Positions 7,914 to 35,054 of a stretch of DNA of 64,000 bases are shown here, one piece after another. Made by a program: the position numbers and the translations under genes. How positions within the stretch are numbered: position 1 is the stretch's first letter; each line of letters starts with the position of its first letter. Below the pieces are notes generated by a model. It was not told the DNA's origin. It saw nothing but the letters and a program-made list of their open reading frames with translations, and did not search any database. This DNA comes from Promethearchaeota archaeon (lineage in GTDB: Archaea > Asgardarchaeota > Lokiarchaeia > Sigyniarchaeales > SOKP01), in contig JAHPZA010000003.1 of NCBI GenBank assembly GCA_019058445.1, positions 516,919 through 580,918 of the forward strand, written 5' to 3'.

Positions 7914-9338
7914 ATGACTATTATCAGACCAAAAATTCAATTGTTAGATGAGAAACATAAAGCACAAATTCTTCTAGAAGCTAAAAATATTCTTGAAACT
8001 CTCGGAGTCTATATAGAAAATGAGCAAGCGATTGAATTATTAAACAGTAATGGATTAAACCATAAAAATTCGCGCTTTTTCCTTCCATCTGATTTAGTAG
8101 ATAAGTGTTTAGGGGATGTTCCATCCGAAATTATTTTATATGATAGAGAGAGTGAAGAAAACCTCTCATTGAGAGATGATAATTCCTATTTTAATCCTGG
8201 ATCTGCTGCGATGCATATTTTAGATGATGCTACTTATCAGAGAAGAAAGGCAACTACTCAAGATTTTATCCGTTTTTCTAAAATTGTTGAGCAATTAAAG
8301 TATATTGAGGCTCAGAGTACCGCATTAATCTGTAATGATATCCACATAGAGGCTCAAGATTGGCATAGGTTATTGATCTGTTTAACAAATTGCTATAAAC
8401 CAATTATTACGGGTACATTCCGTAAAGAAAGTTTCAAAATCATGCGAGAGCTCCTTCTTGCCTGCCGATTATCTGAGGATGACTTAGCGAGAAAGCCGTT
8501 GGCTATCTTCGATGCTGCGCCTTCTCCACCTTTAAAATGGACGGATCTCACAACCCAAGCCATAATTGACGGAGCGAAAAGTAGGATTCCCGTGGAATTT
8601 GTATCAATGCCTTTAGGAGGAGCAAATGCTCCAATTACATTAATAGGTTCGATCACCCAAATCTGTGCTGAGAACTTAGCTGGGATAGTAATTTCCCAAC
8701 TAACAGCTCGCGGAGCCCCTCTCATATGGGGAGGTTCTCCATCAATGTTAGATATGAAATATGGAACACCACCAATGAGTGCAATCGAATCGATGATGGT
8801 AAATATTGGTGGTGTTGAAATGGGTAAATATTTGAATATGCCCACACATGCTTATATGAGTGTAAGCGACTCAATGATTCCGGATACTCAAGCAGGTCTT
8901 GAAGCAGGAATGGGTATATTACTTGGAGCATTAGCCGGAATAAATGTAAATTCCGGTCCTGGAATGTTAGAATTTGAAATTACTCAAAGCATTGAGAAAC
9001 TATTAATTGATAATGAAATTGTTGGTATGGTAAAAAGATTTTTATCTGGAATTGAAGATTACGGGAAGCCTTTTGCGTCAGATATTTTACAAGATTATCA
9101 AAAGAAGGAACAACTACTTACACACCCGACAACCAAGAAGTTATTTAAGACAGAATTATTTTTACCAAGTTCTATAATTAATAGAATGTCCTATAGTATG
9201 TGGAAAAATTCCGGAGAAAAATCAACAAGGAAGAGAGCTATGGAAGAAGCCTCCAAATTAATAAAAAAGCCTCCGATAAAACCCATTAAGGAAATTCTGC
9301 GAAATGAATTAAATAAAATTGCGTCTAATTATTTATAA
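7914..9338 (+). CDS. Trimethylamine:corrinoid methyltransferase (MttB) superfamily, non-pyrrolysine
   Basis: 'SPPLKW', 'GANAPITLIGS..Q..AENLAG', 'DMKYG', 'SDS...D.QAG.E', 'G.LE' and 'LLIDNE'. No internal amber codon. Confidence 0.9.
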   Translation: MTIIRPKIQLLDEKHKAQILLEAKNILETLGVYIENEQAIELLNSNGLNHKNSRFFLPSDLVDKCLGDVPSEIILYDRESEENLSLRDDNSYFNPGSAAMHILDDATYQRRKATTQDFIRFSKIVEQLKYIEAQSTALICNDIHIEAQDWHRLLICLTNCYKPIITGTFRKESFKIMRELLLACRLSEDDLARKPLAIFDAAPSPPLKWTDLTTQAIIDGAKSRIPVEFVSMPLGGANAPITLIGSITQICAENLAGIVISQLTARGAPLIWGGSPSMLDMKYGTPPMSAIESMMVNIGGVEMGKYLNMPTHAYMSVSDSMIPDTQAGLEAGMGILLGALAGINVNSGPGMLEFEITQSIEKLLIDNEIVGMVKRFLSGIEDYGKPFASDILQDYQKKEQLLTHPTTKKLFKTELFLPSSIINRMSYSMWKNSGEKSTRKRAMEEASKLIKKPPIKPIKEILRNELNKIASNYL

Positions 9339-9385
9339 TAAAAATAAAATTTTTTATAGAAATTTGATTTTAATTAAAGAGAAAG

Positions 9386-10039
9386 ATGAATATGTCTCAA
9401 GAGAACATATATAGAGAAATTTCCGCAGCAATAGTAGAGTTAAATAAAGAAAAAGCTATACAAATGGCAAATAAAGCCATAGATGAAAGGATGAATATAT
9501 TAGATGTGATTGAGAATGGTTTTGCAGAAGGTATTCGACGAGTCGGAGAGTTATGGGATGAGGGGGAATTTTTTTTACCAGAATTAATGATGGGTGCTAA
9601 AATTATGCAAGAATGTTTAGAACTTCTTATGCCCCATTTAGAGAGAGGAGTAGAAAGAAAAACACTAGGAAAAGTCGTCATAGCTACTATTGAGGGAGAT
9701 ATACATTCAATAGGGAAAACGATTGTAGCCACAATGTTAAGAGCTTATGGATTCGAAGTTTTTGATATAGGAGCAGATGTTCCAGTAGATAAAATTATAG
9801 ATACTGCCATTGAAAAAAATGCTGACGTAATTGGAATTTCAGCTCTACTTACAACAACCATGATCGGTCAAAAAAAAGTTATAGAAGTTTTAAAAGAAAA
9901 AGGAATCGCTGATAAATTTAAAGTGATTCTGGGGGGCGCACCAATAACAGGTGAATGGGTTAAAGAATGTTGTGCCGATGGCTACGCCGGAAACGCTGTG
10001 GAAGCCGTTAACCTAGTCAAATCCTTATTAAGTAAATAA
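9386..10039 (+). CDS. Methyltransferase cognate corrinoid protein (MttC/MtbC-like)
   Basis: Cap domain 'GELWDEGEFFLPEL', B12-binding GDIHSIGK, 'SALLTTTM' and 'GGAP'. Confidence 0.93.
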   Translation: MNMSQENIYREISAAIVELNKEKAIQMANKAIDERMNILDVIENGFAEGIRRVGELWDEGEFFLPELMMGAKIMQECLELLMPHLERGVERKTLGKVVIATIEGDIHSIGKTIVATMLRAYGFEVFDIGADVPVDKIIDTAIEKNADVIGISALLTTTMIGQKKVIEVLKEKGIADKFKVILGGAPITGEWVKECCADGYAGNAVEAVNLVKSLLSK

Positions 10040-10080
10040 ATAGAAGTACAGAGGAGATAAAGCTGCTTTTTTATGATTGG

Positions 10081-10950
10081 TTGAATAACGAATCTAAGGT
10101 TATTTTATTCGATGGCGCAATGGGCACAGAAATCATTAAGCGAGGAATAGAGCCTGGTAAAATTCCAGATATTTTGAATATCGAACAGCCAAATCTTATT
10201 ACAGAGATACATAAAGCATATTTTAGTGCCGGATCAGACATATGCCAGACCTGTACTTTCGGATCTACACCATTAAACTTACAGCATTATAATTTAACTG
10301 AAAAATTTAAAGAAATTAATCAAAAAGCCTTAGACAATATTCTATTAGCCCGTCCTCCTGATCGAATAATCGCGGGAGATATTGGACCAACTGGAGAATT
10401 TAAACCTCCTGTAGGAAATGCGACACTAGAACAATGGTATCAGAGTTTTTATGAGCAATCGAAAATATTAGATAAGTATATTGATGTATGGCACATCGAA
10501 ACAATGTCCGATTTGGATGAAATGCTCACAGCTGTAAAAGCAATCAAAAGAATTTCTCAAAAACCAATTATGAGTTCAATGACTTATAGGAAAACAAAAA
10601 GGGGGTATTTTACTATTATGGGAGATTCCTTGGAAAAATGTATTAAATCATTAGAAATGAGTGAGGTAGATGTAATTGGAACAAATTGTACTATTGGATC
10701 AAAAGATATGATTGGTTTAATTGAAGAATCCGTGAAAATAACCAACAAACCACTTTTAGTAAAACCCAATGCTGGTCTCCCTAGGCTCGATACAGGTGAA
10801 AAAACATATTATGATCAATCGGTTGAGGAATTTGTTGAAGATATTTGTATAATGATTGATTTAGGGGTAAAAATAGTGGGAGGATGCTGTGGAACTTCGC
10901 CAGAGACAATTAGAGAAATCCGTAAGAGCATTGACTTATTATATTCTTGA
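10081..10950 (+). CDS. Stand-alone homocysteine S-methyltransferase domain (MetH N-terminal/BHMT-like)
   Basis: TTG start. 'FDGAMGT', 'GDIGPTG', 'IETMSD', Zn ligands 'GTNC' and 'GGCCGT', and 'KPNAGLP'. Confidence 0.9.
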   Translation: MNNESKVILFDGAMGTEIIKRGIEPGKIPDILNIEQPNLITEIHKAYFSAGSDICQTCTFGSTPLNLQHYNLTEKFKEINQKALDNILLARPPDRIIAGDIGPTGEFKPPVGNATLEQWYQSFYEQSKILDKYIDVWHIETMSDLDEMLTAVKAIKRISQKPIMSSMTYRKTKRGYFTIMGDSLEKCIKSLEMSEVDVIGTNCTIGSKDMIGLIEESVKITNKPLLVKPNAGLPRLDTGEKTYYDQSVEEFVEDICIMIDLGVKIVGGCCGTSPETIREIRKSIDLLYS

Positions 10951-10991
10951 TTTTAAGTATTAAAAAGCTTATTGAACGAAGTAATTAAATC

Positions 10992-12458
10992 TTAAGCTTT
11001 AAATTTAAAATTTATTAATTCTTTTTCAGCTCTAGTAAGAATTTCATTTAATTTTTGTACGGTAGTCTCAGATAACTGTTCTGGTTGGTGAGATTCAAGT
11101 ATTTCAAGTGTTTTCTGATTTACCTTATCTCCATAAGGTTTTTTTCCTTTTTTTATCCACGATTCTGGATCTTCACGATTTAGAAATTTAGGACGCCATA
11201 ATTCTTGACGAAAGTGTTTCAAAGTATGTTCTTCAGAGAGAAAATCTCCACCTGGACCAACCTTTCGAATTACATCAATAGCCATCATTTCCTGATCGAT
11301 ATTAAAGCCGTTTATAAGCTTTTTTACATAACTTATAATCTCATTACACATAACTATTGAAGCGGGATTTCCCAACAGTCCTTGACCTAAATATCCAATA
11401 TCATGTATTAAATTGGCTCCATCAAGGGCAGATAACAATGTTCCGAATGCATGTTCCATAGCTGCCTGCTGATCAAGACAATGAGAATCAGAACCCGTTG
11501 TAGACCACATTGGAATATTATAATAGTGAAAGATATCTGCAAATGCAGAGTTTGTCAAACGAGTAGCAGGATCTCCATAAGAGAAAGTTGAGTATCTCAT
11601 ATCTAATGGAATTACTCCAAATCCTGAGATTATTGGAGCCCCCTTGTTCTTAAGTTGATGTAAAACAATCCCACTTAAAGCTTCAGCATTAGCTTGTACA
11701 ATTCCGCCGCCCAATGTAACTGGAATGCTTGCTCCAAGAATATCTCCTGGTGTATAGCATATTGGAATACTTTTCTCAGCACACAAAAATACCTTATTTA
11801 CTGCTCCATAAGAATGTGTCAAAGGAGCAGTTGGTTCAGAATAATGAATAAGAAAAGGCTTTTTTTTTAGATTTTCCTCTCCACCAGCTATAATTTCTGC
11901 CATTTCTATAATGTACGAAAGATCCTCTTTTCCAGCTGCAGTAAAGAATATAGGTTTAATGGAATTTTCCATCATCGCTTTTACACAATTAATATACATT
12001 AAATTAGACGGTACATCACTCGGTAAGCCAAAAGAAGCAATAAAATCTACATTCTCGCAATAATCCGAGACTTTAGCTGCATTAATTACGTCTTGTAATA
12101 GAGATAATCTTATTTCTTTAGTGTGTAAATCATATGTACGAATTAAGTCCGTTCCGGTCCCAAAATGGATATTCCTTCCCTCCAATTGCATTACCTTTTC
12201 TCCTTTTCTATTAAATATTGTAATTTGAGAAGGAGCACTGCGTAAACATTCTTCCACTAACCAATTAGGTATACGTACAATGTTATTATCTTCCACGATG
12301 CACTCGGAATTCTCTAATAATTTTAAACCTTGCTCGTGTGATATACGAACACCGATAGTTTCCAATATCTCCAAACTGGCTAGATGAATTTTTTTAATTT
12401 GGCTTTCTGTTAAAAGCTTAAAGTTTGGTTTACACTGTGTTTTGAAATTTTCAATCAT
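10992..12458 (-). CDS. MttB superfamily methyltransferase, non-pyrrolysine (second paralogue)
   Basis: 'IHLASLEILETIG', 'EPTAPL', 'NAEALSG', 'SDS..LDQQA', 'LIHDIGYL' and 'VGPGGDFL..EHT'. ATG at 12458 chosen because GAGGT lies 9 nt upstream; the ORF track starts at TTG 12467. Confidence 0.9.
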   Translation of the reverse strand: MIENFKTQCKPNFKLLTESQIKKIHLASLEILETIGVRISHEQGLKLLENSECIVEDNNIVRIPNWLVEECLRSAPSQITIFNRKGEKVMQLEGRNIHFGTGTDLIRTYDLHTKEIRLSLLQDVINAAKVSDYCENVDFIASFGLPSDVPSNLMYINCVKAMMENSIKPIFFTAAGKEDLSYIIEMAEIIAGGEENLKKKPFLIHYSEPTAPLTHSYGAVNKVFLCAEKSIPICYTPGDILGASIPVTLGGGIVQANAEALSGIVLHQLKNKGAPIISGFGVIPLDMRYSTFSYGDPATRLTNSAFADIFHYYNIPMWSTTGSDSHCLDQQAAMEHAFGTLLSALDGANLIHDIGYLGQGLLGNPASIVMCNEIISYVKKLINGFNIDQEMMAIDVIRKVGPGGDFLSEEHTLKHFRQELWRPKFLNREDPESWIKKGKKPYGDKVNQKTLEILESHQPEQLSETTVQKLNEILTRAEKELINFKFKA

Positions 12459-12545
12459 CTTAATCAAACCTCAGATTAGACTAATATAATAATTTTTAGT
12501 ATTAAAAACTTTTAAATAAATTCAAATCTAAATAATAATTCGATT

Positions 12546-13973
12546 ATGTTTGCAAAAGTCCTTACAAAACCACAAATTGATCAAATTCACCAGGCATCAC
12601 TTAGTATTCTAGAAAGAACTGGAGTGATAATTCCCCATGAAGAAATTTTAGCTAAGTTTGGTAAACACGGGGCAGTTGTAAATGCTAAGGAAAACCATGT
12701 AAAAATACCCTCTGAGTTAGTTATGGAACTCGTTTCAAAAGCGGGGAAAAACTTTACCCTTTATGGAAGAGATATTTCGAATAAAGCTGAATTCGGATCA
12801 GGTAAACGGAACTATAATACCACTGCTGGACAAGCTTTCTGGATCGATAATATCGGGGATAATCGAAGATACACATGTATGGATGATGTTACTACTGCCG
12901 TGAAGTTTAGCGATGCGCTAGATCAAATAACAATTCCAGGAGCAATGGCAGATCCACATGAAATACCAGTGGAGTGGAGATGCGTTGCTGTAGCAACGGA
13001 AGCCATTAAAAATACTTCAAAACCAATCATGTTTTGGTTCCATGATAGAGCTTCGGCAAAATATTTAATAGATTTGCTTATCGCATTAAGGGGAGACGAG
13101 AAAAAAGCTGAAACCTATCCTTTATTTTTTCCGTTTCTTGAACCTATAAGTCCTTTGAGCTTTCCCTTCAACGGTATAGACCTTTTATTCGAAACAGCAC
13201 GTTTAAATATTCCAGTTCCTATTGGTCCCATGGCACAGATGGGCTTATCTGCTCCATCAACATTAGCCGGAACCATGGCCCAAGAAAATGCTGAAGTATT
13301 AGCTGGGATATGTGTCACCCAACTTATACGTGAAGGGATGCCAATTTGTTATGGGGGTATATGCCATGCATTTGATATGAAAACCGTACAAATGATATTT
13401 TCAGGGCCGGAACAAGCAATTTTTAGCGTTGCGATGAGTCAGATGGGTAAATTTTATGGTTTTCCGGTATATATTAATGCGGGATTAACAGACTCGAAGA
13501 GTCCCGATGCTCAAGCAGGTTTGGAATGCGGATTAACCTTAGCAATGGGTGCTGCTGCCGGTGCTGATATCTTCGGACATATGGGGATATGTGGGATGGA
13601 TCAGGCAAGCTCTTTAGATTTTCTTATAATGCAATCTGAAATTATTTCATATGTAGAAAGTATGATGAGAACAATAAACTTCACAAAAGAAACTTTTGCT
13701 ATGGATTTAATCGATGAAACTGGACCTAAAGGCTCATTTTTACACAAACAACATACTCGTAAACATTTTAGGAAAGAACTATGGTTTCCTAGCTTGCTAG
13801 ATAGAAGAGATTATAAAGCATGGCGTGAAAAAGGAACTAAAACTATGGAGCAACGTTGTCGCGAGCGAAAAGATGAAATTATAGCAAACTATAAACCTAT
13901 GCAATTACCAAATGATATAGCACGCGAACTGGATGAGATTGTTAGGACCGCAAAGCAAAACTTAAAACAGTGA
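12546..13973 (+). CDS. MttB superfamily methyltransferase, non-pyrrolysine (third paralogue)
   Basis: 'IHQASLSILERTG', 'EPISPL', 'APSTLAGT.AQENAE.LAG', 'GLTDSKSPDAQAG.E' and 'GPKGSFL...HT'. Confidence 0.9.
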   Translation: MFAKVLTKPQIDQIHQASLSILERTGVIIPHEEILAKFGKHGAVVNAKENHVKIPSELVMELVSKAGKNFTLYGRDISNKAEFGSGKRNYNTTAGQAFWIDNIGDNRRYTCMDDVTTAVKFSDALDQITIPGAMADPHEIPVEWRCVAVATEAIKNTSKPIMFWFHDRASAKYLIDLLIALRGDEKKAETYPLFFPFLEPISPLSFPFNGIDLLFETARLNIPVPIGPMAQMGLSAPSTLAGTMAQENAEVLAGICVTQLIREGMPICYGGICHAFDMKTVQMIFSGPEQAIFSVAMSQMGKFYGFPVYINAGLTDSKSPDAQAGLECGLTLAMGAAAGADIFGHMGICGMDQASSLDFLIMQSEIISYVESMMRTINFTKETFAMDLIDETGPKGSFLHKQHTRKHFRKELWFPSLLDRRDYKAWREKGTKTMEQRCRERKDEIIANYKPMQLPNDIARELDEIVRTAKQNLKQ

Positions 13974-15424: not shown

Positions 15425-17389
15425 TTATAATGGGTTAATCGTTTCAAATAAATGAGTAAATTTAGATTTTTTTCTATAAAATACCGGTGGACTCCCAATG
15501 GAAGCTTCTATTTCATGCCATCCTTTTCCATATTCCTTATCAGACCATATGTGAATCCATTGATCTTCAGGAAGATATACTTTCCAAACAGTAATCTTAG
15601 GTTTAATAACAGGAGCCACAAGCAAATCTCTTCCCAATAAATATTGGTACTTTAATTTATGTAATTCGGGATCATTTCCATAATGGAGATAACAAGCCCG
15701 TATTGGTGAGATGCCTGTTTCTTGATATTCCTTTGAGAGTTCTTTCAAATATGGTTTCAAATGAACATGCATATTAACCATTTTGGCTAGGTGAGATAAA
15801 GTCTCCTGATCACCATCAAATTGCCAATTATTCTGAGGTCTATTACCCTCATGAGTACGCATTATCATTGAAAAGGCAGCCCATTCTGCTCCGCGTAGAA
15901 ACATCTCTTTTGTTCTTTTATATGGACCATATGTAGTGTATCCTCCAATATCATAACAGTAATAGCCTATTCCACATAATCCTACTGAAATACCACATGG
16001 AATGACCGTTGCTATTCCATTTATTTCATTCCAATCCTCAAGCTGATCCCCTGAAAAATAACACATTATATATTTAGACGCATGTGAAAATCCTGATCTA
16101 TTGAATACAAAAACATCGTGTAATTTTTGTTCCTCATCTAAAATTTCATACACGACTTTCGCAAATTCGACGGGATAATAATTATGATATTCTTCAACAC
16201 CCATATCTGAATGTATTATTATATCAGCATTTACTGGAAGGTATTCTCCATAATCATGCATCCAGCCTGAGAGTCCTATATCAAGCAAATTTTTTTTTAT
16301 TATAGTTTTGAACCATTCGAATGCATCTGGATTTGATATATCTAAGATGCAGGTTGGAAAGTCTGTGGTATATATAATTAAATCTTCGCCTTCTTTGTTT
16401 TTCACACAATACCCTTTTTTGGAAGCTTCCAAATACATGGGAGCGTCAATTGGCAAAAATTGGTTCATATACCCTAAGAACTTAATGTTCCTTTTATTTA
16501 AGGATTTTATAAACTCTGGCAAATCTGGATAACTTTTTTTTTCATATTCCCAATTCCAAAATAATTGCTGACCAAATGAGGTCATACGAATCCCTTGCCA
16601 ATCTTGACACCATGCTGCTATTACTTTAATCCCAGCATCAATTGCTTTATTGATTTTAGTCTCGACTATTTCATTTCCCCCTTGAATTCCCATGATAAGC
16701 CCATCATATACCCAGTCGGGCACTGGCGGTTGGCGACCAAAATAATCCGATAAATAACTTATTACAGAAATTGCTGTTTCAAATTTACCAATTATAATCT
16801 TCTTTGGCACTTCCCAAATAAGCAATTCATGGAATTTTTCGTTAATAAAATTAAATTCAGAATAATAGGTTGTTTCTACATGGCAGAAGTAGTTAGATTT
16901 TCCAGCTGAGATAAAAGTAGGAAATGGGAAATATGTATACTTTGTATGCCCAACGGGGGAGTGATCCTCAACCCATATAGGAATTTTATAGCCCCTCAAA
17001 TTTAATTCTGAAAATTGTGATCCGCAACCATAGATTGCCTCTTCAGATCCTGCTGAGAGTGACATCCAAAATCTATTAATAATCGGATCTTTAGCTGCTG
17101 GTATGATTTCTAAGTGATTATCCTTTATTCTACAAATGAGATTTAATATTTTATCCTTTCTTGAAAGATTAATTTTAATCTCATTATCAGTGGTATTAAT
17201 AATATTAAATTCATTAAGTTCAATCTTTTCTTCCACATTATCTTTTATCTTAAACTTATGATTTTTTAGTCTATAGAGAGCTTTTCCAATTCCAATTTTA
17301 AAGCAAGGCTTATTGGAACTGTGATGTAAAAAAAGATGACCTTTATAATATATCTTGAATTCATCCTTGGAATATTCAAGCTTTAACAT
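15425..17389 (-). CDS. yihQ: GH31 glycosidase, sulfoquinovosidase (YihQ/SqvC)-like
   Basis: 'DWVYDG..GIQGG', 'WCQDWQGIRMTSFG..L.WNW', nucleophile 'GWMHDYGEYLP', acid/base 'GDQ..DW', 'DIGGYTT' and 'RTHEGNRP..NWQFD' follow YihQ as I recall it. The sulfonate-binding Arg is replaced by Gln. Confidence 0.8.
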   Translation of the reverse strand: MLKLEYSKDEFKIYYKGHLFLHHSSNKPCFKIGIGKALYRLKNHKFKIKDNVEEKIELNEFNIINTTDNEIKINLSRKDKILNLICRIKDNHLEIIPAAKDPIINRFWMSLSAGSEEAIYGCGSQFSELNLRGYKIPIWVEDHSPVGHTKYTYFPFPTFISAGKSNYFCHVETTYYSEFNFINEKFHELLIWEVPKKIIIGKFETAISVISYLSDYFGRQPPVPDWVYDGLIMGIQGGNEIVETKINKAIDAGIKVIAAWCQDWQGIRMTSFGQQLFWNWEYEKKSYPDLPEFIKSLNKRNIKFLGYMNQFLPIDAPMYLEASKKGYCVKNKEGEDLIIYTTDFPTCILDISNPDAFEWFKTIIKKNLLDIGLSGWMHDYGEYLPVNADIIIHSDMGVEEYHNYYPVEFAKVVYEILDEEQKLHDVFVFNRSGFSHASKYIMCYFSGDQLEDWNEINGIATVIPCGISVGLCGIGYYCYDIGGYTTYGPYKRTKEMFLRGAEWAAFSMIMRTHEGNRPQNNWQFDGDQETLSHLAKMVNMHVHLKPYLKELSKEYQETGISPIRACYLHYGNDPELHKLKYQYLLGRDLLVAPVIKPKITVWKVYLPEDQWIHIWSDKEYGKGWHEIEASIGSPPVFYRKKSKFTHLFETINPL

Positions 17390-17412
17390 AATAAATTATA
17401 TAAATAAAACAA

Positions 17413-18732
17413 TTACTTAATTATTTTCCATCCTATAATTTTGGAAAACATCTCAAAAGGTTTTATGAAATCTCCATAGACAACTGAAATATGATGTGCA
17501 ATTCCATTGTGAATAATTTTATGTAATACATCTCTTATTTTTTCTTGAAATACGACTTTTGCATAAGTACCCTTTAATTCTTTTTCCATAAAAATAGCCT
17601 CTCCTTTTTGGACAAATATTCGATATTCGTCTGGAGGAGCATAATCGATTCTTAAAAGTGAAAGTTCTCCGGGTTTCATGACAAAATCTGCAGTCACTCC
17701 TTTTCCACCCGCAAAATAAGTATCTAAAGATCTGATACATTTACCATCCCACAAATTGCATGCTGCAACACCACAATGCCATAATAATCCATAATTTTCT
17801 TCAAAATTCACTTGTGAAAAATCAGCTAAAAACGGAGTTTCTGCTCCAATAGCTTTATGTGCTAACATAGATAAACTGCCTAGAATGTCTCCCTCACAAG
17901 TTAAGATTTTTCCTTCGGCTTGTAAAATAGACATCGCAGCACATGGAGATATTCCAAATTTTTGTGCAAATTCAGGCCAACATCGCACGGCTATAGAGTT
18001 TAGGTTATTCTCTTTCATAAATGTTTCAAATTTGATTACTAATTCAGCCACTTTTTCAACTTGACTAGTGTTTACTCCTGAAATGTCGAATATAGTTTCA
18101 ATTTGCGTTTTTCTTTCTGGAAGTTTATGATAATCAATGATTTGATTAAATACATCACTTAACTGATAATACTCAATTAAAATTCCTAAATGCTTGTATA
18201 AATCAAGCTCATCGACGTCTAGATTAAAAAATCCGTGAGCTCTGGAGCCTATTATCCCTACGTGAGAACTTGAAAATGCTTTGATTATCCTTATTGCATC
18301 TAACCAATCCTCGTCAATCTCATCCCCTATAACTACATGATAATTTCTTATACCTGCTTTATACAGATTAGACGCATTCAAGTTAATCCCACAGACTGAA
18401 TTGAGTCTAATTTTTCCACCATCATAGGGTAATTCATATAAACCCCACAATAGAATTGGTCGGTTGATAACTTTATTTAATTCTAAAATCAAATGCCCTA
18501 AAGCAAAAGTTCCGCTAATACAAATCAAGCCATCTATTTGCTTAGATGCTAAATGATGTGCTGCATTTTGTGCTTCTTCAATTTCGATGACTAACTCCGG
18601 GATAATTTCCCAATTTATATTTTCAATAGATTTAAGTTTCACTTGAATATCTTGATAAATCTCAAACGCCACCTCGAAATCGAATGTTTTTCTGGCAATG
18701 CACACTACTCCTATTCGAATTTCTTGCTTCAT
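17413..18732 (-). CDS. sqvD: L-fucose/L-arabinose isomerase family protein, sulfoquinovose isomerase (SqvD/SftI)-like
   Basis: 'IARKTFD', 'LWGLYE...GGKIRLNSVCG.N', 'AVRCWPEF', metal site 'CEGDILG', 'ADF' and 'LLWHCG'. Lies between the transaldolase and GH31 genes. Confidence 0.75.
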   Translation of the reverse strand: MKQEIRIGVVCIARKTFDFEVAFEIYQDIQVKLKSIENINWEIIPELVIEIEEAQNAAHHLASKQIDGLICISGTFALGHLILELNKVINRPILLWGLYELPYDGGKIRLNSVCGINLNASNLYKAGIRNYHVVIGDEIDEDWLDAIRIIKAFSSSHVGIIGSRAHGFFNLDVDELDLYKHLGILIEYYQLSDVFNQIIDYHKLPERKTQIETIFDISGVNTSQVEKVAELVIKFETFMKENNLNSIAVRCWPEFAQKFGISPCAAMSILQAEGKILTCEGDILGSLSMLAHKAIGAETPFLADFSQVNFEENYGLLWHCGVAACNLWDGKCIRSLDTYFAGGKGVTADFVMKPGELSLLRIDYAPPDEYRIFVQKGEAIFMEKELKGTYAKVVFQEKIRDVLHKIIHNGIAHHISVVYGDFIKPFEMFSKIIGWKIIK

Positions 18733-18830
18733 TAAATACCGACCTTTTCTAACTTATCTTAAAATTTTAATATATACACAGTATACTAAATAATTCCAAT
18801 TTCTCTTAAATTTTCAAACCAGATACCAGA

Positions 18831-19499
18831 TTACAATGTGCCAAGTTCGGTATCATCCCACGCATCTTGGAATATTTTTAATCCTCGATCTGTAAAGGGA
18901 TGGTCGAAACTCGCCTTGTAAACTTCAAATCCTGCCGTTACAATATCAGCTTCCATAACTGCTGCCTCCACGATCTGCTTGCCATTACGTACGGCAGCGA
19001 CAATAATTTCTGTATCGAAATCATAATTTTGATATATAGTCACAATATCTGAAATCAGTTGAGTGCAATCTACACCCGAAGCTTCTTGCCAGCCTATAAA
19101 TGGAGAACAATATGCCGCACCTATTCTTCCTACCTGTAATGCTTGTGATGCTGTAAAAACGAGCGTCACATTTACTTTAATACCCTCTTCTGTAAGATCC
19201 TTCGCTGCGATTAACCCATGCTCTGTACAAGGAATCTTTATCACAAAATTTTTAGAGATTGCTGCGATTTTCTTGGCCTCAGAGATCATATCATCTGAAT
19301 TCTGAAGGTGTGGGTCTATTTCTACAGAAATAGGAAAATCAATATTCTTAAATTCCTCAGCAAATTCTTTAATCACGTTAAAAAATGGCTTTCCCGAATT
19401 TTTGATGTGTTTCGGATTTGAAGTAACACCATCAATCTTCCAATTCTTTAAAGCATATTTTATTTCTTCTAATTTGGCACTATCAAGAAAATACTTCAT
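18831..19499 (-). CDS. sqvA: Transaldolase, 6-deoxy-6-sulfofructose transaldolase (SqvA/SftT)-like
   Basis: 'MKYFLDSA', 'GVTSNPKH', 'ISVE', Schiff-base Lys in 'FVIKIPCT', and 'NVTLVF'. It has 'SPFIGW' and 'AAVRNG' where phosphate-specific transaldolases have SPFxGR and ASxR. Confidence 0.8.
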   Translation of the reverse strand: MKYFLDSAKLEEIKYALKNWKIDGVTSNPKHIKNSGKPFFNVIKEFAEEFKNIDFPISVEIDPHLQNSDDMISEAKKIAAISKNFVIKIPCTEHGLIAAKDLTEEGIKVNVTLVFTASQALQVGRIGAAYCSPFIGWQEASGVDCTQLISDIVTIYQNYDFDTEIIVAAVRNGKQIVEAAVMEADIVTAGFEVYKASFDHPFTDRGLKIFQDAWDDTELGTL

Positions 19500-19633: not shown

Positions 19634-21049
19634 TTAGCGATAGATACCTAATTCTTTTAACTTCTTTATTAATGCTTCCTTCTCGGCTCCCTCAAGCGTG
19701 TAGTTTTTCCTAAACATTAATCCCATCACTACAAATATAAGTCCTGGAATTAATTGAGCGTGAATTCGAATTCCCCATTGAGCTACGAGAGATTGAGTTG
19801 CATGTGGATCAGGATTGTATGCAGTAAGAATGTGTATTGTTGGAATGATAATCCCAACTGCTACAAATGCGAGACGAAAGAAAAATGTTCTTACTCCAAC
19901 CAAACTTGCATCAACACGTTTTCCCATTTTTGATGCAACTAAATCATAGGTATCAGAAGCAACAGGTTGTAGCATGGTAACTTCACCAGAATAAAATATG
20001 GCACCTATAAAAGCAATTATGACGAGTATGATATAAAATAAAGGAAATCCATATTCTCTTAACACAAATAACGCAGATAAGATAAAAATCCCGTGACAAA
20101 TAAATGTAAGCCAATATGTCTTCTTAAAGCCATGCTTCCGAGTATAATTACTCCAGAATGGTACAGCAAATACAAAAGCTGCTACACCTAACAATGTAGG
20201 CAGAATTGCATATGTTAAGGGTAATTGCCAAACATCTTTATACATATAAATACTGGATACCCCCTGTAATGCTATTGCAATACTATAACATGTATATCCT
20301 GCTAATGATACTCTAAAATTCTTTGTTTTAAGCGCTGTTTTCATTGTCCCATAAAAACTGCTTTCTTTTTCTACATAACCCCGTAGAAACATTTGTTTCA
20401 TCTTATCTGATTCTTTTATTCCAAGTAAAAGAAATACATTATATATTACCAGAAGGATAATCATTATTGTTGCAAATGTAACAAACGAGGTCCTATCTCC
20501 ATATACTATAATTGCGTTTCCTATTACGGTCATAGTAGTCATTAAAATACCCATTAAAATCGTTGCTATCGCAAATGATCTTCTACGCTCGTATTCTGAA
20601 GGGAATTGGTTAGTGTAACCTCCATAAACATGGTCATTATAAATAGAGAAAAAAGTATCGAAAAGACATGTTATAACTATAAACCATATAAATAAAGTCA
20701 TCTCACTTGCTCCTTCAGGTGGGACCCAAATAAGAAAATAAAATAACAAAATCGGGAAAGCCGTAATTACAACCCAAGGAGCTCGTAAACCCCATCTCTG
20801 TGTCCATTTAAGAGGTTTATCTGTAAGATACCCTAATAGGGGATCATTTATCATGTTCCATATTGCAAATATAACGTACGCGACCCCTAATAGCGCAACT
20901 GATATACCAATCTCGACTTCATAATAGTAAAACACGAGAGAAAAGCCACGCATTAACAAAAAATTTATAATAAGGTAGCCAAATGCATATGATAACATTT
21001 TACCTGTAGATGCGATTTCCCATTCACTTAAATCTTCTTGAACAGCCAT
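19634..21049 (-). CDS. GPH-family MFS sugar transporter (array paralogue 1)
   Basis: About 12 TM segments, 'WNMINDPLLGYLTDKP' and 'ASDTYD'. GGTGA ribosome-binding site at 21056-21060 on the minus strand. Confidence 0.9.
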   Translation of the reverse strand: MAVQEDLSEWEIASTGKMLSYAFGYLIINFLLMRGFSLVFYYYEVEIGISVALLGVAYVIFAIWNMINDPLLGYLTDKPLKWTQRWGLRAPWVVITAFPILLFYFLIWVPPEGASEMTLFIWFIVITCLFDTFFSIYNDHVYGGYTNQFPSEYERRRSFAIATILMGILMTTMTVIGNAIIVYGDRTSFVTFATIMIILLVIYNVFLLLGIKESDKMKQMFLRGYVEKESSFYGTMKTALKTKNFRVSLAGYTCYSIAIALQGVSSIYMYKDVWQLPLTYAILPTLLGVAAFVFAVPFWSNYTRKHGFKKTYWLTFICHGIFILSALFVLREYGFPLFYIILVIIAFIGAIFYSGEVTMLQPVASDTYDLVASKMGKRVDASLVGVRTFFFRLAFVAVGIIIPTIHILTAYNPDPHATQSLVAQWGIRIHAQLIPGLIFVVMGLMFRKNYTLEGAEKEALIKKLKELGIYR

Positions 21050-21148
21050 TTATTTTCACCTTTTATTTGAAAGAATTTGATTAGATTTTGATAAGAAATT
21101 GAATGTTTACTGAAAAGTATATATTTTATTTTACTATGGATCTTGTGA

Positions 21149-21166
21149 TATATTTAAAGTTTTTGA
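21149..21166 (-). promoter_or_regulatory. Putative BRE/TATA promoter of transporter paralogue 1
   Basis: Minus strand reads AAAAAC-TTTAAATA about 100 nt upstream of the ATG. The same TTTAAATA occurs upstream of paralogues 2 and 3. Confidence 0.4.
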
Positions 21167-21321
21167 AGTAGATTAATAGAAATCAGTAATCAATCCCTTT
21201 TTCCTTTTCTGAAAATCTTTTGTTCTTTTCCTTAAATATAAAGGAATTTAACAATAAAACTCCTTAAGATATTTAAGTAATTAAAAAAATAAAAAAGATT
21301 TTTAATTTATTCATCTCCTTT

Positions 21322-22725
21322 TTAATATAACCCCATTTCCTTAAGCTTTTTCACCATTTCTGCTTTTCTTTCTCCCTCTAATGTATACCATTTATATACA
21401 ATAAGGGAAATCGTTAACATTAATAGCGCAGGAATTAATCCAGCATGAATTCGTATTCCTATAATTGCTAGCGGCGTCTGTGTTGCATTTGGATCCGGAT
21501 TATAGTTCGTCACGATATGTATCACGGTGATTACTACTCCTTGAACTACGATAGCAATTCTAAAGAAAAAATTCCTTATTCCCTGAAGTGTTCCGTCTTG
21601 GCGTCTGCCCATTTCCGTAGAGACCTCGTCCATAGTGTCGGAAGCTACTGGCATTGTCATGAGAGTATAACCCGCATAGGGAATTCCCCCTATAAACGTA
21701 AAGATAACAGCTTGCCATATATTCGTTATGAATAATGTGGGGATATAACAAATGCCAGCAAAAAACAGAGCTGTGTAGTATGTTTTTTTAAAACCGTGTT
21801 TTCTGGCATAATTAGACCAGAATGGAATCGAAAGCATATAGCCCGCGAAACCTGCAAGTGCTGTGAGTACTGCATATGTGTAAGGTACTTTAAATACATC
21901 TTTCAGCATATAAATCCCTGAAGCGGTTGCTAAGGTCTGAGCTGTAATGATAGTGGTATATGTGGTAAGAGAGATTGCAAAATTCCTTTTTTTAATTGCT
22001 GTTTTCATGATACCAAAAAAGCTGGTATCTTCGGCAGTTTCGAATCCCTTGATAAGCTTTTCTTTTAATTCATCAGATTCTTTAATTCCAAGAAAGAGAA
22101 AAATATTACATATCGCAAGAATTATTACTACAACTAAGGCTGATACCGCAAAGGAACTCTTGTTTCCATACTCTATAATAAAAGGCGGGATTATTGCTAT
22201 ACCAACCACTCCGATTCCTGCGACTGCTATGATTACGGCAAATCCCCTTCTTCGCTCATATTCTGTGCGAAATTGGTTTGTAAAACCTCCATAGACATGA
22301 GTATTGAAAATAGAGAAGAATGTATCAAATAGAGCAGTAATTATTAGCATGTAAAAAAATATAGTTAACGCATTTTCCTTAGGGTCAATGTTAGGCGGAG
22401 TAAAGATTAAAAAATAACAAATTAAAATTGGAAAACTAGAAAGAACAACCCAAGGAGCTCTAAATCCATATTTCCTCGTCCATTTTCTTGGTTTATCGGT
22501 AAAGTATCCTAAAAGGGGATCATTAAACATGTTCCATATTGCATACAGCACAAAAGCAATGCCTACGAATAAGACGGGTAACCCTACTTCCACTTCATAG
22601 AAATAAAAAACGATCGCAGAATATGCACCTAGTAAATAAGCAATAATAAGGTACCCAAATCCGTAGGATATCATTTTAGAGGTTGGTGCTATTTCCCACT
22701 CACTTAAATCTTCTTGAATAGCCAT
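21322..22725 (-). CDS. GPH-family MFS sugar transporter (array paralogue 2)
   Basis: Same N-terminus (EDLSEWEIA), 'WNMFNDPLLG' and 'GRRQDG'. Confidence 0.9.
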   Translation of the reverse strand: MAIQEDLSEWEIAPTSKMISYGFGYLIIAYLLGAYSAIVFYFYEVEVGLPVLFVGIAFVLYAIWNMFNDPLLGYFTDKPRKWTRKYGFRAPWVVLSSFPILICYFLIFTPPNIDPKENALTIFFYMLIITALFDTFFSIFNTHVYGGFTNQFRTEYERRRGFAVIIAVAGIGVVGIAIIPPFIIEYGNKSSFAVSALVVVIILAICNIFLFLGIKESDELKEKLIKGFETAEDTSFFGIMKTAIKKRNFAISLTTYTTIITAQTLATASGIYMLKDVFKVPYTYAVLTALAGFAGYMLSIPFWSNYARKHGFKKTYYTALFFAGICYIPTLFITNIWQAVIFTFIGGIPYAGYTLMTMPVASDTMDEVSTEMGRRQDGTLQGIRNFFFRIAIVVQGVVITVIHIVTNYNPDPNATQTPLAIIGIRIHAGLIPALLMLTISLIVYKWYTLEGERKAEMVKKLKEMGLY

Positions 22726-22786
22726 TTATTTCACTATTAGTTTTTTTCAATATTTTTGTTTTAAATTGCGAATTTCCTAAATAATT

Positions 22787-22803
22787 ATTATTTAAATGTT
22801 TAA
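22787..22803 (-). promoter_or_regulatory. Putative BRE/TATA promoter of transporter paralogue 2
   Basis: Minus strand reads AAAACA-TTTAAATA, with the TATA at 22789-22796. Confidence 0.35.
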
Positions 22804-22879
22804 AATTAAAAAGGTATCTTTTTAATAAGAAATGATAAATAAAATAAGTTTAAAAAAAAAAGAAATTTAAATTTTAAAA

Positions 22880-24289
22880 TTAACGATAGATACCCATTTC
22901 TTTTAGCTTTTTTACCAGCGCTTCTTTCTCTTTTCCTTCAAGAGTATAATATCTTTTAAATAGCAACCCCATGATAATCATCATGAGTCCCGGTATCAAT
23001 GCGGTATGAATACGGATACCTAATAGAGCTGTGGCAGTTTGATCTGCTGGCCCAAAAGCATTTGGATCGGTATTATACCCTGTTAAGAGATGGATGGGGA
23101 GTATTACAAGAAAAATAACAAGAAATGCTACACGAAAGAAAAAGGTTCTTATCCCAACCATGCTCGCGTCTACGCGGAATCCCATATGACTAGAGACCTC
23201 ATCATAGGTATCTGAAGCTACGGGCATGAGCATCGTGGTCAACCCAATCCCGTTTATTTGGAAGATAATATAACAGATTAAATGGGCCCAAAAGTTAGGA
23301 GTGAAAAAGAACTGTAGATATAAAATGCCTTGAAGTAAATAAGTTACCCAATAAGTTTTCCTGAATCCATGCTTTCGAGAATAGTTATACCAGAATGGTA
23401 TAGATAATATAGCAGCTGCGGTACCTAATAACGCGAGTAAGGTGTTCATTGCATAAGGCACCCCATACACATCCTTTAACATATATGCCATAGACGCGAG
23501 ATAGATGGTTTGAGCAGTTACCTGTATCGTATAACCCGCTAAGGATACCCGGAAATTTTTTGTTTTAAGGGCAGTTTTCAATGTACCAAAAAAACTAGCC
23601 TTCTCTGCTTTCTCATATGCGTTGATAAACATCTGTTTCATTTGTTCCGACTCTCTTATTCCAGGAAAAATAATTATACTGAAGATGGCCATAAGGATTA
23701 TCATCACCAAAGCACCTACTGCAAATGACGCTGGGTTTCCGAATTGTATTATTAAAGACCCGATAATAACCATACCGGTTATTACTAAAAACATTATAAT
23801 CGTTGCTATCGCAAAGGACCTACGGCGTTCGTATTCTGAAGGGAACTGGTTGGTGTAGCCACCATACACGTGGTCATTATAAATTGAGAAAAAAGTATCG
23901 AAAGCGCACGTCATAAGGATAAACCATAAAAACATCACCATAGCGCCCATGCCTTGAGGGGGTACCCAGATTAAGTAGAAAAATATAAATATTAGGGGAG
24001 TGCATACCACAACCCATGGAGCTCGTAATCCATATCGTGGTGTCCATTTCAAGGGCTTATCCGTAAGGAAGCCTAAGAGCGGGTCGTTCACCATGTTCCA
24101 TAAGGAAAATACTACGCCTGCAAGTATAATATAGATAGCAGCTAACCCCATTTCGACCTCATAAAAATAGAGTAGATTTGCCAAACCATATAAGAGGATA
24201 TAGTTGACAACAACATAGCCGAAACCGTAGGATATCATTTTTCCTGTGGAAGCAATTTCCCATTGACTTAAATCTTCTTCAATTGCCAT
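22880..24289 (-). CDS. GPH-family MFS sugar transporter (array paralogue 3)
   Basis: Closest to paralogue 1, sharing 'DTFFSIYNDHVYGGYTNQFPSEYERRRSFAIATI'. Confidence 0.9.
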   Translation of the reverse strand: MAIEEDLSQWEIASTGKMISYGFGYVVVNYILLYGLANLLYFYEVEMGLAAIYIILAGVVFSLWNMVNDPLLGFLTDKPLKWTPRYGLRAPWVVVCTPLIFIFFYLIWVPPQGMGAMVMFLWFILMTCAFDTFFSIYNDHVYGGYTNQFPSEYERRRSFAIATIIMFLVITGMVIIGSLIIQFGNPASFAVGALVMIILMAIFSIIIFPGIRESEQMKQMFINAYEKAEKASFFGTLKTALKTKNFRVSLAGYTIQVTAQTIYLASMAYMLKDVYGVPYAMNTLLALLGTAAAILSIPFWYNYSRKHGFRKTYWVTYLLQGILYLQFFFTPNFWAHLICYIIFQINGIGLTTMLMPVASDTYDEVSSHMGFRVDASMVGIRTFFFRVAFLVIFLVILPIHLLTGYNTDPNAFGPADQTATALLGIRIHTALIPGLMMIIMGLLFKRYYTLEGKEKEALVKKLKEMGIYR

Positions 24290-24448
24290 TACTAATCACT
24301 TTGATTGATTTTAATTGCTTTTAAATATTGGATATTTTTTTTAAAATTGATGTTAATTTAACATTTTCGTTAAGTTCTATTTAAATATTTGTAAAAAAAC
24401 TACCTATCAAATTTCTAATATCCTAAGAAACCTAAGATCTCAATAAAG

Positions 24449-24489
24449 AAAAAAAGCAATCTTACCATTAAAAAAGAGCAATTCTTACC
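24449..24489. repeat. Imperfect direct repeat in the divergent intergenic region
   Basis: aaaaaaagcaatcttacc (24449-24466) and aaaaaagagcaattcttacc (24470-24489). Confidence 0.4.
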
Positions 24490-24522
24490 TAATTATTGGA
24501 AAAAAATTGAGATAATTAGTAA

Positions 24523-25020
24523 TTCTGATCATATATTGAAAAAAAATACGGGCATGTAAAAACGATGAAATTCGGTTCCTTATTGGTTGCAATTGCATTA
24601 ACTCCCGGAATGTGGATAACAACACTATGGGAAACCATATTATTTCAATTTTTAGGTGGGATCGCTTTTGGCGGCTTTATAATTATGATAGGACCGAGAA
24701 CTGCAGATGTAAATGATGAATTTACTGTTACTACAGGAAGAAATCAAGAAGAAATACTCGCGGGAATTCGCACGTTTTTCTTTCGATTTGCACTTATCTT
24801 TCAAGCGATAATTCTTACAACTGTACATGTCTTAACGGAATATAATCCCGATCCTCATGCAGTACAGACTCCTTTAGCTCAATGGGGAATACGTATACAT
24901 CTTGCTTTAATCCCTTCTTTATTAACATTATTGGGATTTTTCATCCTATATTTCTTTTATGATCTTAAAGGAGAAAAAAAAACATTTATTAAATCTCAGT
25001 TGCGTGAATTAAAACTATGA
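24523..25020 (+). pseudogene. C-terminal relic of a GPH transporter paralogue
   Basis: Only the last third of the protein is present. Upstream of the ATG at 24565 the frame reads F*SYIEKKYGHVKT, matching FWSNVSKKYGHATT of paralogue 5 (TGG to TGA at 24526-24528). Similarity stops further upstream. Confidence 0.85.
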
Positions 25021-25201
25021 TGTTTATTTATTCTTAGAATTACATTAGTAAATCCTCTTCAAAAATAAGATAAGTATTGCAAAATAAACCTTTTTATATT
25101 GGTTTGATCTAATTCTATATTTAATTAGCATTGCTATTTTACATACTATATTGTAAAAAACACTTAAGGAAGCAATGGAATAATAAAATAAATGTGATAT
25201 A

Positions 25202-26614
25202 ATGATGAGTGAAGAAAATGAGACTGATTTTTCAGAATGGGAGCAAGCATCCACAAAGAAAATGTTATCCTTTTCCTTTGGATATCTTCTTGTATTTTTT
25301 ATGGGAGGTCAATTTAATGTTTACGTATTTTATTATTACGAAGTAGAGATTGGCTTACCTGTTGTGATGCTGGGATTTGCTTTTATTATATTTGCGGTTT
25401 GGAACATGATCAATGATCCTCTTGTAGGATTTTTAACCGATAAGCCTTTTAAATGGACCAAAAAATGGGGAATGAGATTTCCCTGGATGGTCTTGGGTGT
25501 AATACCATATATTATCTGCTGGTATTTTCTTTTCGCAGCTCCCGAGGCTTTAGTTGAAAATTCTGATCCATGGCCCATTTTTTGGTATTTTGTGATTATG
25601 GCATGTCTGTTAGACACTTTTTATTCCCTTTTTACAACTCACATAAATGCTGCATTTACAACCCATTTCCGCACCGATGCAGAACGCAGAAAAGCTCAGT
25701 TAATAAACAATACCATCCCACAGGTTTTGCAGCTTTTTATAGGTTTTACAGTACCCCTCATTTATATCTATGGTAATAGGAATTCAATGATTCTTGCACA
25801 AACTATAGTAGTTTTACTAATGTTTGTTGCCATGCTTATTATGATCCCTGGTGTACGCGAGTCAAATGAATTAAAAGAGCGCTTTCTTCGGGGTTATGAG
25901 AAACAAAAGAGAGATCCTTATTTTAAGTCATTAAAATTAGCTTTTGGTCGTAGGAATTTTACGTCAACTCTTATAGTATATATGTTATTGTCATTCGGAG
26001 CAATTATTTACGCTGCATCAGGGGTTTACTTCTTTAAAGATATTTTAGGAATCCCATATTCATACGCTATATTCACTGGTTTAGCGGGTTTTGTAGGTTT
26101 TGTAGGTTCTGTACCTTTCTGGGTTTGGATGTGTAAAAAGATAGGACATGGAAATGTAATGAAATTAAGCCTTTTTTTAATAACTCTTGTATATCTGCCT
26201 GTGTTGTGGATGACAACTTTAATTGAAGCTATAATATACGGTTTTTTCGGCGGAATAGCGAGTGCGGCCTTCTGGACGCCACTTGGGCCGGTCACAGCAG
26301 ATGTTTATGATGAATCTACTATATCGACGGGAAAACACCAAGAAGCGATGTATGAGGGAATTAGAACTCTTTTTAATCGTCTTGGTTTTGTCTTTGTAGG
26401 AATAGTACTTCCAATAGTTCATATTTCTACAGGATACAACCCTGATCCTCATGGTACACAAACTCCACTAGCTATATGGGGAATACGCATTCATATGGGA
26501 TTAATTCCAAGTCTTTTAGCGTTAATATCATTTGTAGTTATGATAAAATGGTACGATTTAGCAGGAGAAAAACAAAAGGCACTCAAAATAAGGTTAAAAG
26601 AAATGAATCTCTGA
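25202..26614 (+). CDS. GPH-family MFS sugar transporter (array paralogue 4)
   Basis: 'DFSEWEQAST', 'WNMINDPLVG' and 'ADVYDE...TGKHQEAMY'. Confidence 0.9.
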   Translation: MMSEENETDFSEWEQASTKKMLSFSFGYLLVFFMGGQFNVYVFYYYEVEIGLPVVMLGFAFIIFAVWNMINDPLVGFLTDKPFKWTKKWGMRFPWMVLGVIPYIICWYFLFAAPEALVENSDPWPIFWYFVIMACLLDTFYSLFTTHINAAFTTHFRTDAERRKAQLINNTIPQVLQLFIGFTVPLIYIYGNRNSMILAQTIVVLLMFVAMLIMIPGVRESNELKERFLRGYEKQKRDPYFKSLKLAFGRRNFTSTLIVYMLLSFGAIIYAASGVYFFKDILGIPYSYAIFTGLAGFVGFVGSVPFWVWMCKKIGHGNVMKLSLFLITLVYLPVLWMTTLIEAIIYGFFGGIASAAFWTPLGPVTADVYDESTISTGKHQEAMYEGIRTLFNRLGFVFVGIVLPIVHISTGYNPDPHGTQTPLAIWGIRIHMGLIPSLLALISFVVMIKWYDLAGEKQKALKIRLKEMNL

Positions 26615-35028: not shown

Positions 35029-35054
35029 AATAATCAGCAAAACTTATTAAAGAA

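Follow-up and report, generated by a model that had tools for sequence, protein, structure and literature searches.

Sulfoquinovose is a sulfur-containing sugar that abounds in the membranes of plants and algae and is produced at ~10 billion tons per year. A three-gene cluster in an Asgard archaeon raises the question of whether members of this archaeal group can degrade it. The cluster lies in a 64,000-nucleotide stretch of DNA, hereafter the window, from a Promethearchaeota archaeon (GenBank assembly GCA_019058445.1, contig JAHPZA010000003.1, here C3, positions 516,919–580,918), and encodes a transaldolase, an isomerase of the fucose isomerase superfamily and a GH31 glycosidase. An initial annotation made from the sequence had interpreted this trio as the core of a sulfoglycolytic transaldolase (sulfo-TAL, also termed sulfo-SFT) pathway. 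The analysis presented here makes it probable that the trio is indeed such a core, in a Lokiarchaeia-type Asgard archaeon, since the transaldolase and the GH31 enzyme both score higher against sulfo-TAL enzymes than against ordinary paralogues and the only NCBIfam match of the isomerase is SftI.

All known pathways of sulfoquinovose degradation are bacterial and none has been characterized in archaea or eukaryotes, according to a 2026 review in which the sulfo-TAL pathway is recorded for Firmicutes, Thermotogae and Chloroflexi (PMC12890257). NAD-dependent sulfoquinovosidases have been reported in “a small number of archaea.” Full-text literature searches for sulfoquinovose together with Asgard or the lineage names returned N-glycan papers only and no archaeal sulfoglycolysis. 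The absence of any description of sulfoglycolysis in Asgard archaea, which the initial annotation had noted, therefore holds in the searchable literature and agrees with the review. The genomic evidence supports assignment of the cluster as an archaeal member of a known bacterial pathway.

Organization of the Gene Cluster

Proteins encoded in the window were assigned to families by Pfam and NCBIfam profile matches. The three genes at the center of this study are co-oriented and are separated by intergenic gaps of 98 and 23 bp:

18831–19499, minus strand, sulfofructose-type transaldolase (SftT/SqvA-like), 222 amino acids, TAL_FSA family
17413–18732, minus strand, SftI-like aldose-ketose isomerase of the fucose isomerase superfamily, 439 amino acids
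15425–17389, minus strand, YihQ-clade GH31 glycosidase, 654 amino acids

Three GPH transporter open reading frames of the same orientation lie upstream of the trio (19634–24289). The map of open reading frames bears out the genes, positions, spacing and upstream transporters originally described, and all of the sequence motifs then quoted are present in the translations, namely SVE (containing E60), SPFIGW (F134 and W137) and AAVRNG (A169 and R171) in the transaldolase and ARKTFD near the N terminus of the isomerase. Both the enzyme families and the kinase-free logic are common to the cluster and to the sulfo-TAL/sulfo-SFT systems of Priestia (Bacillus) aryabhattai SOS1 and P. megaterium DSM 1804 (SftG/I/T, SqvD/A). 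The pathway also occurs in Eubacterium (Agathobacter) rectale, Clostridium symbiosum and Enterococcus gilvus (Frommeyer 2020, PMC7491151; PMC12890257).

The Transaldolase Belongs to a Sulfofructose-type Clade

The strongest piece of evidence for a sulfo-TAL function is provided by the transaldolase. This protein matched the TAL_FSA family with 158 bits, and its best matches in the PDB were the Bacillus megaterium sulfofructose transaldolase structures 8BC2-4 (312–319 bits; 318 bits for 8BC3), with ~65% identity over the full length, compared with 170 bits for the best ordinary transaldolase in the PDB. The catalytic set is present and comprises the Schiff-base residue K88 together with D6, N28, E60 and F134, to which we assign the roles presumed from established knowledge of transaldolases. 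K88 aligns with Lys89 of the B. megaterium enzyme, a residue that has been captured as a Schiff base with sulfofructose (PMC12890257).

The window sequence, 32 archaeal and 48 bacterial sulfo-type relatives were aligned with 12 ordinary TalC/FSA-type sequences, eleven of them from Asgard genomes and the other being E. coli FsaB; “sulfo-type” is defined here by clade-specific conservation in this alignment. Seventeen positions split the 81 sulfo-type from the 12 ordinary transaldolases, and the window protein is sulfo-type at every one. These positions include W137 and A169, which are occupied in ordinary transaldolases by the phosphate-binding Arg and by Ser, respectively. Trp and Ala are invariant in the 33 archaeal and 48 bacterial sulfo-type sequences, whereas the ordinary sequences carry Arg and Ser. 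The downstream Arg171, common to the enzyme solved with sulfofructose bound, is also retained. In a maximum-likelihood tree, the window protein was placed in the sulfo-type clade, apart from the ordinary clade, with a support of 100. The SqvA-type character that had been proposed from the SPFxGW and AAxRNG motifs is thus supported by motifs, scores and tree alike.

The GH31 Protein and the Isomerase

The GH31 protein contains three GH31 domains (Pfam) and matched the PRK10426/YihQ model with 735.5 bits, the cut-off being 553. Comparison with the solved sulfoquinovosidases 8R56, E. rectale SftG (6PNR) and E. coli YihQ (5AED) gave 579–614 bits and comparison with the Agrobacterium tumefaciens enzyme gave 476 bits, as against 149 bits for YicI of the next GH31 subfamily. 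The protein is 40% identical over its full length to E. coli YihQ (sequence from NC_000913) and retains the equivalents of the nucleophile D405 and the acid/base D472 (YihQ numbering here and below), as well as six of seven other signature residues, among them Q262, Q288, W304, Y508 and H537. It therefore resembles the sulfoquinovosidases of known structure (YihQ 5AED/5OHT, A. tumefaciens 5OHY, SftG 6PNR and 8R56) in its catalytic Asp pair and most signature residues, but belongs to an Asgard clade that varies at positions 301 and 508. In a tree of GH31 sequences, 17 Asgard proteins formed one clade (support 100), which was sister (support 100) to a group to which E. coli YihQ, Caloramator and the E. 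rectale type belong; bacterial proteins with Gln at position 301 made up the other half of the tree.

The isomerase gave a weak Pfam match to Fucose_iso_C (30 bits), and its sole NCBIfam match, which spans the full length and scores 236 bits, was to SftI (NF048012). The protein is ~26% identical to canonical, E. rectale-type SftI and falls in a separate subfamily, being 51–60% identical to the form whose genes adjoin those of sulfo-type transaldolases in Caloramator, Gemmiger, Spirochaetota, Planctomycetota and others. Clusters of the E. rectale type contain the canonical form, which is 25–30% identical to the window protein, whereas the subfamily of the window accompanies sulfo-type transaldolases in bacteria that carry the labels Bacillota, Spirochaetota and Planctomycetota, as well as in a few Bacteroidota-labelled bins. 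An orthologue is encoded within 8 kb of the transaldolase gene in 25 of 32 archaeal loci.

Distribution and Linkage in Asgard Archaea

A synteny survey across Asgard metagenome-assembled genomes (MAGs), which the initial annotation had proposed, revealed that the cluster is recurrent. Transaldolase identities to the window protein were bimodal over 400 Asgard species genomes, lying at 65–100% in 38 genomes and at 38–45% in ~130, with none between, and more than half of the genomes had no transaldolase at all. A YihQ-like GH31 protein (E ≤ 1e-100) was present in 33 and the isomerase (E ≤ 1e-60) in 35 of the 38 genomes with a sulfo-type transaldolase, and in 20 and 12, respectively, of the 362 genomes without one; because Asgard genomes are related and hence non-independent, these counts are descriptive and do not amount to a statistical test. 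Of 32 archaeal loci, 16 have the transaldolase, isomerase and GH31 genes in this order on one strand, and many of the remaining loci stop at a contig edge. Several Asgard genomes carry both a sulfo-type and an ordinary TalC-type transaldolase, which fall in separate clades.

Relative to the window, the other Asgard loci show identities of 65–93% for the transaldolase, 57–80% for the isomerase and 43–82% for the GH31 protein, and the gene order is usually the same. In several of them, the transaldolase and isomerase genes are separated by genes for a YihU-family dehydrogenase and a Mem_trans permease, both of which are absent at the window locus. A YihU-family β-hydroxyacid dehydrogenase gene lies directly between the two in five relatives, and a Mem_trans permease gene is near the transaldolase gene in eight. 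The gene context points to the YihU-family protein as a putative sulfolactaldehyde reductase; it scored highest against models of tartronate-semialdehyde reductase rather than against that of sulfolactaldehyde reductase.

The cultured relative Candidatus Lokiarchaeum ossiferum B-35 encodes a transaldolase (UYP45182.1) that is 69% identical to the window protein and contains all of the signature residues. Its locus (L121, C1:1776000–1794000) consists of the transaldolase gene and, after it, the YihU-family dehydrogenase, Mem_trans permease and isomerase genes, and directly adjoins the Vps4, ESCRT-II and EAP30 (EAP30/Vps36-like) genes on a closed contig of 6,035,313 bp. The L. ossiferum GH31 gene lies 1.2 Mb from this locus, and its product has neither Arg301 nor Tyr508.

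Sulfatase genes (PF00884) were found within 8 kb of the transaldolase gene in eight archaeal loci, and GH4 glycosidase genes in six (both within L008–L044). A sulfatase orthologue in the genome of the window lies 218 kb away.

Phylogenetic Affinities

In the transaldolase tree, the 33 archaeal sequences and one SAR324 sequence were nested in bacterial diversity, with Anaerolineae-type sequences adjoining; those from Caloramator, a Clostridia MAG, Spirochaetota and Planctomycetota branched one node further out, and those of gut Clostridia further still. Support for the joins between archaeal and bacterial sequences was moderate (82–94). That the archaeal genes lie with or inside bacterial ones in the trees suggests acquisition from bacteria, and the most likely history is one in which anaerobic bacteria were the source of the module, which later spread among Asgard lineages.

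Proposed Pathway and Transport

In the pathway predicted from these sequences, one or more GPH symporters would import a sulfoquinovosyl glycoside, for example sulfoquinovosyl glycerol (SQGro) from algal or plant sulfolipid, from which the YihQ-clade GH31 enzyme would free sulfoquinovose. The SftI-like isomerase would convert sulfoquinovose to 6-deoxy-6-sulfofructose, and the transaldolase would transfer the C1–C3 dihydroxyacetone unit, through a Schiff base at Lys88, to glyceraldehyde-3-phosphate. The products would be fructose-6-phosphate, which would enter glycolysis, and 3-sulfolactaldehyde. An Fe-alcohol dehydrogenase or an aldehyde:ferredoxin oxidoreductase, of which the genome encodes five and eleven, respectively, may turn sulfolactaldehyde into 2,3-dihydroxypropane-1-sulfonate (DHPS) or sulfolactate for subsequent export. 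In this scheme, the substrates, the flux direction and what becomes of sulfolactaldehyde are putative.

The transporter genes and the neighboring genes that recur at related loci are as follows:

19634–21049, 21322–22725 and 22880–24289, minus strand, three tandem GPH:cation symporter paralogues (MFS_2/GPH matches)
24565–25020, plus strand, GPH fragment of 151 amino acids, divergent to the three upstream GPH genes
25202–26614 and 26813–28222, plus strand, two full GPH paralogues, divergent to the three upstream GPH genes
28332–29108, plus strand, Amidohydro_2 protein, member of a neighbor pair
29111–29959, plus strand, NagB/6-phosphogluconolactonase-like protein, the other member of this pair
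32416–35040, minus strand, GH2 β-mannosidase-like glycosidase, a recurring Asgard neighbor
35055–35864, minus strand, MBL-fold hydrolase, a recurring Asgard neighbor

The three GPH paralogues directly upstream of the trio are 52–57% identical to each other and 35–43% identical to the divergent GPH proteins, and the GPH genes at 19634–28222 are recent paralogues. All GPH proteins of the locus are ~22% identical to E. coli YihO/YihP, a level that fits membership of one family but does not demonstrate orthology. GPH/MFS sugar transporter genes are unusually dense in the window: at least eight full GPH genes are present between 3031 and 63918 (starting at 3031, 19634, 21322, 22880, 25202, 26813, 35951 and 62503), together with further MFS genes, and another Asgard locus (L008) has five GPH genes upstream of its transaldolase gene. 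The GPH symporters are candidates for import of the sulfoglycoside or sulfosugar, and some might also export the C3 sulfonate.

The Amidohydro_2 and NagB/6-phosphogluconolactonase-like pair recurs near the transaldolase gene in eight to nine Asgard loci and matches no known step of sulfoglycolysis, so that it is a candidate member of the pathway by recurrence only. The GH2 and MBL pair recurs upstream of the transaldolase gene in six to seven other Asgard loci, and its members are 52–59% identical to the neighbors in L011, L018, L022, L023 and L026.

The locus is therefore like the bacterial sulfo-TAL clusters in its transaldolase, with ~65% identity to the B. megaterium enzyme, the Schiff-base Lys and the sulfo-type residues, and in having an adjoining sugar:cation symporter gene. 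It differs in its Asgard host, in an isomerase of another subfamily, in the Gln that replaces Arg301 of the GH31 enzyme and in transporter genes that are multiplied (three tandem and two divergent) but belong to the same family as SftA. A further difference is that SftR/SftD, SftE, SftX and the regulator are not recognizable in the window cluster or genome.

For the group as a whole, we lean toward the view that approximately one in ten Asgard species genomes, including that of Ca. L. ossiferum, specify fermentation of sulfoquinovose by a transaldolase route of bacterial derivation, with release of a C3 sulfonate. If so, sulfosugar catabolism would have its first example among the Archaea, with sinking algal and plant matter as the source of sulfolipid, and the C3 sulfonate would feed sulfite- or sulfonate-respiring partners in the sediment, a concrete syntrophic link for Asgard archaea. 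A working module would give these organisms a defined substrate and a place in the sediment organosulfur cycle; DHPS or sulfolactate would be a plausible cross-feeding product, and sulfoquinovose would be a candidate growth substrate for Asgard cultures, which grow very slowly.

Substrate Specificity and Alternative Interpretations

Several observations weigh against the assignment of the trio to sulfoquinovose degradation. The GH31 protein has Gln at the position of Arg301 (SFGQQLFWNW versus SFGKRVMWNW of YihQ), a position at which every characterized YihQ-type enzyme that was compared has Arg, and inspection of the GH31 sequences for a compensating basic residue revealed none that was evident. 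The score of the isomerase is below the equivalog cut-off of 700 bits of NF048012, and two unlinked paralogues in the same genome match this model with 146 and 100 bits; consequently, the assignment of the isomerase rests mainly on context. With respect to the later steps, a tblastn search of the genome, which is 92.6% complete, yielded no YihU-type reductase at E ≤ 1e-5, and matches to PF03446 did not exceed 31 bits. A sulfolactaldehyde dehydrogenase was not recognizable in the genome, which gave one weak aldehyde dehydrogenase match only, nor was a TauE-type exporter recognizable in the cluster or the genome, and DUF4867 (SftX) was not found in the genome by a search that had no positive control. 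Nine Asgard genomes have the isomerase and a YihQ-like GH31 protein and no sulfo-type transaldolase. Finally, the window transaldolase is encoded by the sole TAL_FSA gene of its genome, so that a housekeeping role is formally possible from gene content.

Three of these points have companion observations. A GH31 alignment column enriched in Lys and Arg (position 515) was considered as compensation for Arg301 and dropped, because E. coli YihQ also has Lys there and the column is thus uninformative. The only Mem_trans homologue of the genome lies 66 kb away in an unrelated context, and a possible reductase/exporter island at C3:458–477 kb was rejected, since the genes it holds, for short-chain dehydrogenases/reductases, a 3-hydroxyacyl-CoA dehydrogenase and an AEC permease, stand in a context unrelated to the system. 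In six of the nine genomes that have no sulfo-type transaldolase, the isomerase and GH31 genes are adjacent, and an MFS gene lies just upstream of them in L114, the one locus inspected on that side; neither a sulfoglycolytic Embden-Meyerhof-Parnas (sulfo-EMP) kinase or aldolase nor a sulfoglycolytic transketolase (sulfo-TK) was found nearby in L114 or L116 (genomes G185 and G270). A luciferase-like gene (L116:6353–7186) is directly beside the isomerase-GH31 pair in G270.

The substitution at position 301 bears most directly on the substrate. The Q/E-RWY motif (Q288, R301, W304 and Y508) recognizes SQGro and its sulfonate (PMC12780224). In the window protein, Q288, W304 and Y508 are present and R301 is not, and one defining feature of a sulfoquinovosidase is hence lacking. 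A different GH31 sulfoquinovosidase that does not have the RWY motif is nevertheless active (PMC12780224), so that the loss of Arg301 makes the substrate less certain yet is compatible with a sulfoquinovoside. Gln301 is present in 10 of 17 Asgard GH31 proteins and in 25 of 37 bacterial GH31 proteins whose genes adjoin those of sulfo-type transaldolases. Phe occupies position 508 in 9 of the 17 Asgard proteins, including all seven that retain Arg301. Given that all tested YihQ-type sulfoquinovosidases have Arg301, the natural Gln301 variants are of importance for enzymology. The initial description of the protein as a YihQ-type sulfoquinovosidase accordingly stands in respect of family, the score being above the cut-off of the YihQ model, and is weakened in respect of the sulfonate-binding Arg. 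Similarly, the description of the isomerase as SqvD-like is sustained by its only NCBIfam match and by the ARKTFD motif, but not by its subfamily or by a score far under the SftI cut-off.

These features could be explained if the same kinase-free pathway acted on another C6-modified sugar, such as the glycoside of a different sulfosugar, a 6-O-sulfated hexoside or a 6-deoxy hexoside, in which case a new specificity would account for the changes in the GH31 pocket and for the divergence of the isomerase. The replacement of Arg301, the degenerate sulfonate triad of the Asgard GH31 proteins, of which that of L. ossiferum has lost both residues, the low identity of the isomerase to canonical SftI and the sulfatase genes near eight related transaldolase genes are all consistent with this explanation. 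Yet the transaldolase retains every sulfo-type residue and Arg171, Gln301 is also the majority state in bacterial clusters that are otherwise sft-like, and the active enzyme mentioned above has no RWY motif. On this evidence, another sugar is unlikely to be the substrate. The wording “or a related sulfosugar” with which the initial annotation had qualified its prediction is nonetheless apt, given the GH31 enzyme without Arg301, the divergent isomerase and the absence of a recognizable reductase, dehydrogenase or exporter.

An improbable explanation, and one less well sustained, is that the genes serve ordinary neutral-sugar metabolism, an α-glucosidase, a fucose/arabinose-type isomerase and a housekeeping pentose-phosphate transaldolase or fructose-6-phosphate aldolase being adjacent by chance in an island of sugar-utilization genes. 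The transaldolase has no paralogue in the genome, many unrelated sugar genes lie in the window (GH2, GH32 and the GPH/MFS transporters, of which there are at least eight), and public annotations of the Asgard proteins say just “transaldolase.” Against this, the phosphate-binding Arg and the Ser of ordinary transaldolases are replaced, the ordinary TalC type forms a separate clade that is represented in ~130 other Asgard genomes, some of which carry both types, and gene order and co-occurrence with the YihQ-clade GH31 protein are conserved. That more than half of the surveyed Asgard genomes have no transaldolase indicates, in addition, that the gene is not essential.

Assignment of the Host

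The host is an Asgard archaeon, as the initial annotation had surmised, and is of the Lokiarchaeia type. The window is part of a 4.61-Mb genome of 10 contigs that is 92.6% complete with an estimated contamination of 4.3%. The taxonomic call was made on signature proteins and on the record titles of relatives; those closest to the transaldolase bear the titles Promethearchaeia, Promethearchaeota, Hodarchaeota and Hermodarchaeota. One signature gene is present in the window:

53763–54317, minus strand, Ras/Rab-like small GTPase, Ras family (156 bits), an Asgard signature gene

The genome contains 87 Ras-family matches, 16 of them on C3 and one, the above, within the window, as well as six actin matches (best, 441 bits) and ribosomal protein S8e. 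The genome yielded no archaeal small subunit rRNA, and the window yielded no tRNA. Tetranucleotide correlations exceed 0.99 among all contigs and are 0.99 for the window and 0.97–0.98 for the cluster with every contig.

The bacterial affinities of all three genes and the MAG-like, slightly contaminated assembly might suggest that a bacterial contig was binned or scaffolded into an archaeal genome by mistake, but this is scarcely credible, since the window is free of N and lies 160 kb from the nearest scaffold gap, the Ras-like GTPase gene lies 34 kb from the trio with more Ras matches on the same gap-free 315-kb stretch, the tetranucleotide composition agrees with that of every contig, the module occurs in more than 30 independent Asgard assemblies, and the position of the L. 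ossiferum locus beside ESCRT genes on a closed chromosome excludes mis-binning for the clade.

Other Genes in the Window

Adjoining the predicted sulfosugar genes, the region at 7914–13973 contains three MttB-family methyltransferase genes (7914–9338, 10992–12467 and 12546–13973), all of full length and with no stop codon in frame, beside which are genes for a corrinoid-binding protein (9386–10039) and an S-methyltransferase-domain protein (10081–10950). This block looks like a non-pyrrolysine quaternary-amine demethylation module. The segment at 30001–32000 has a G+C content of 23%, compared with ~33% around it, and its open reading frames at 30268–31131 and 31226–31954 gave no family match. 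A luciferase-like oxidoreductase, possibly F420-dependent, is encoded at 37997–39106, and a molybdopterin oxidoreductase with a 4Fe-4S subunit at 39268–42116. A GH32 (fructan/sucrose hydrolase) gene at 58621–60177 lies between MFS and GPH transporter genes, constituting a further sugar module in the island.

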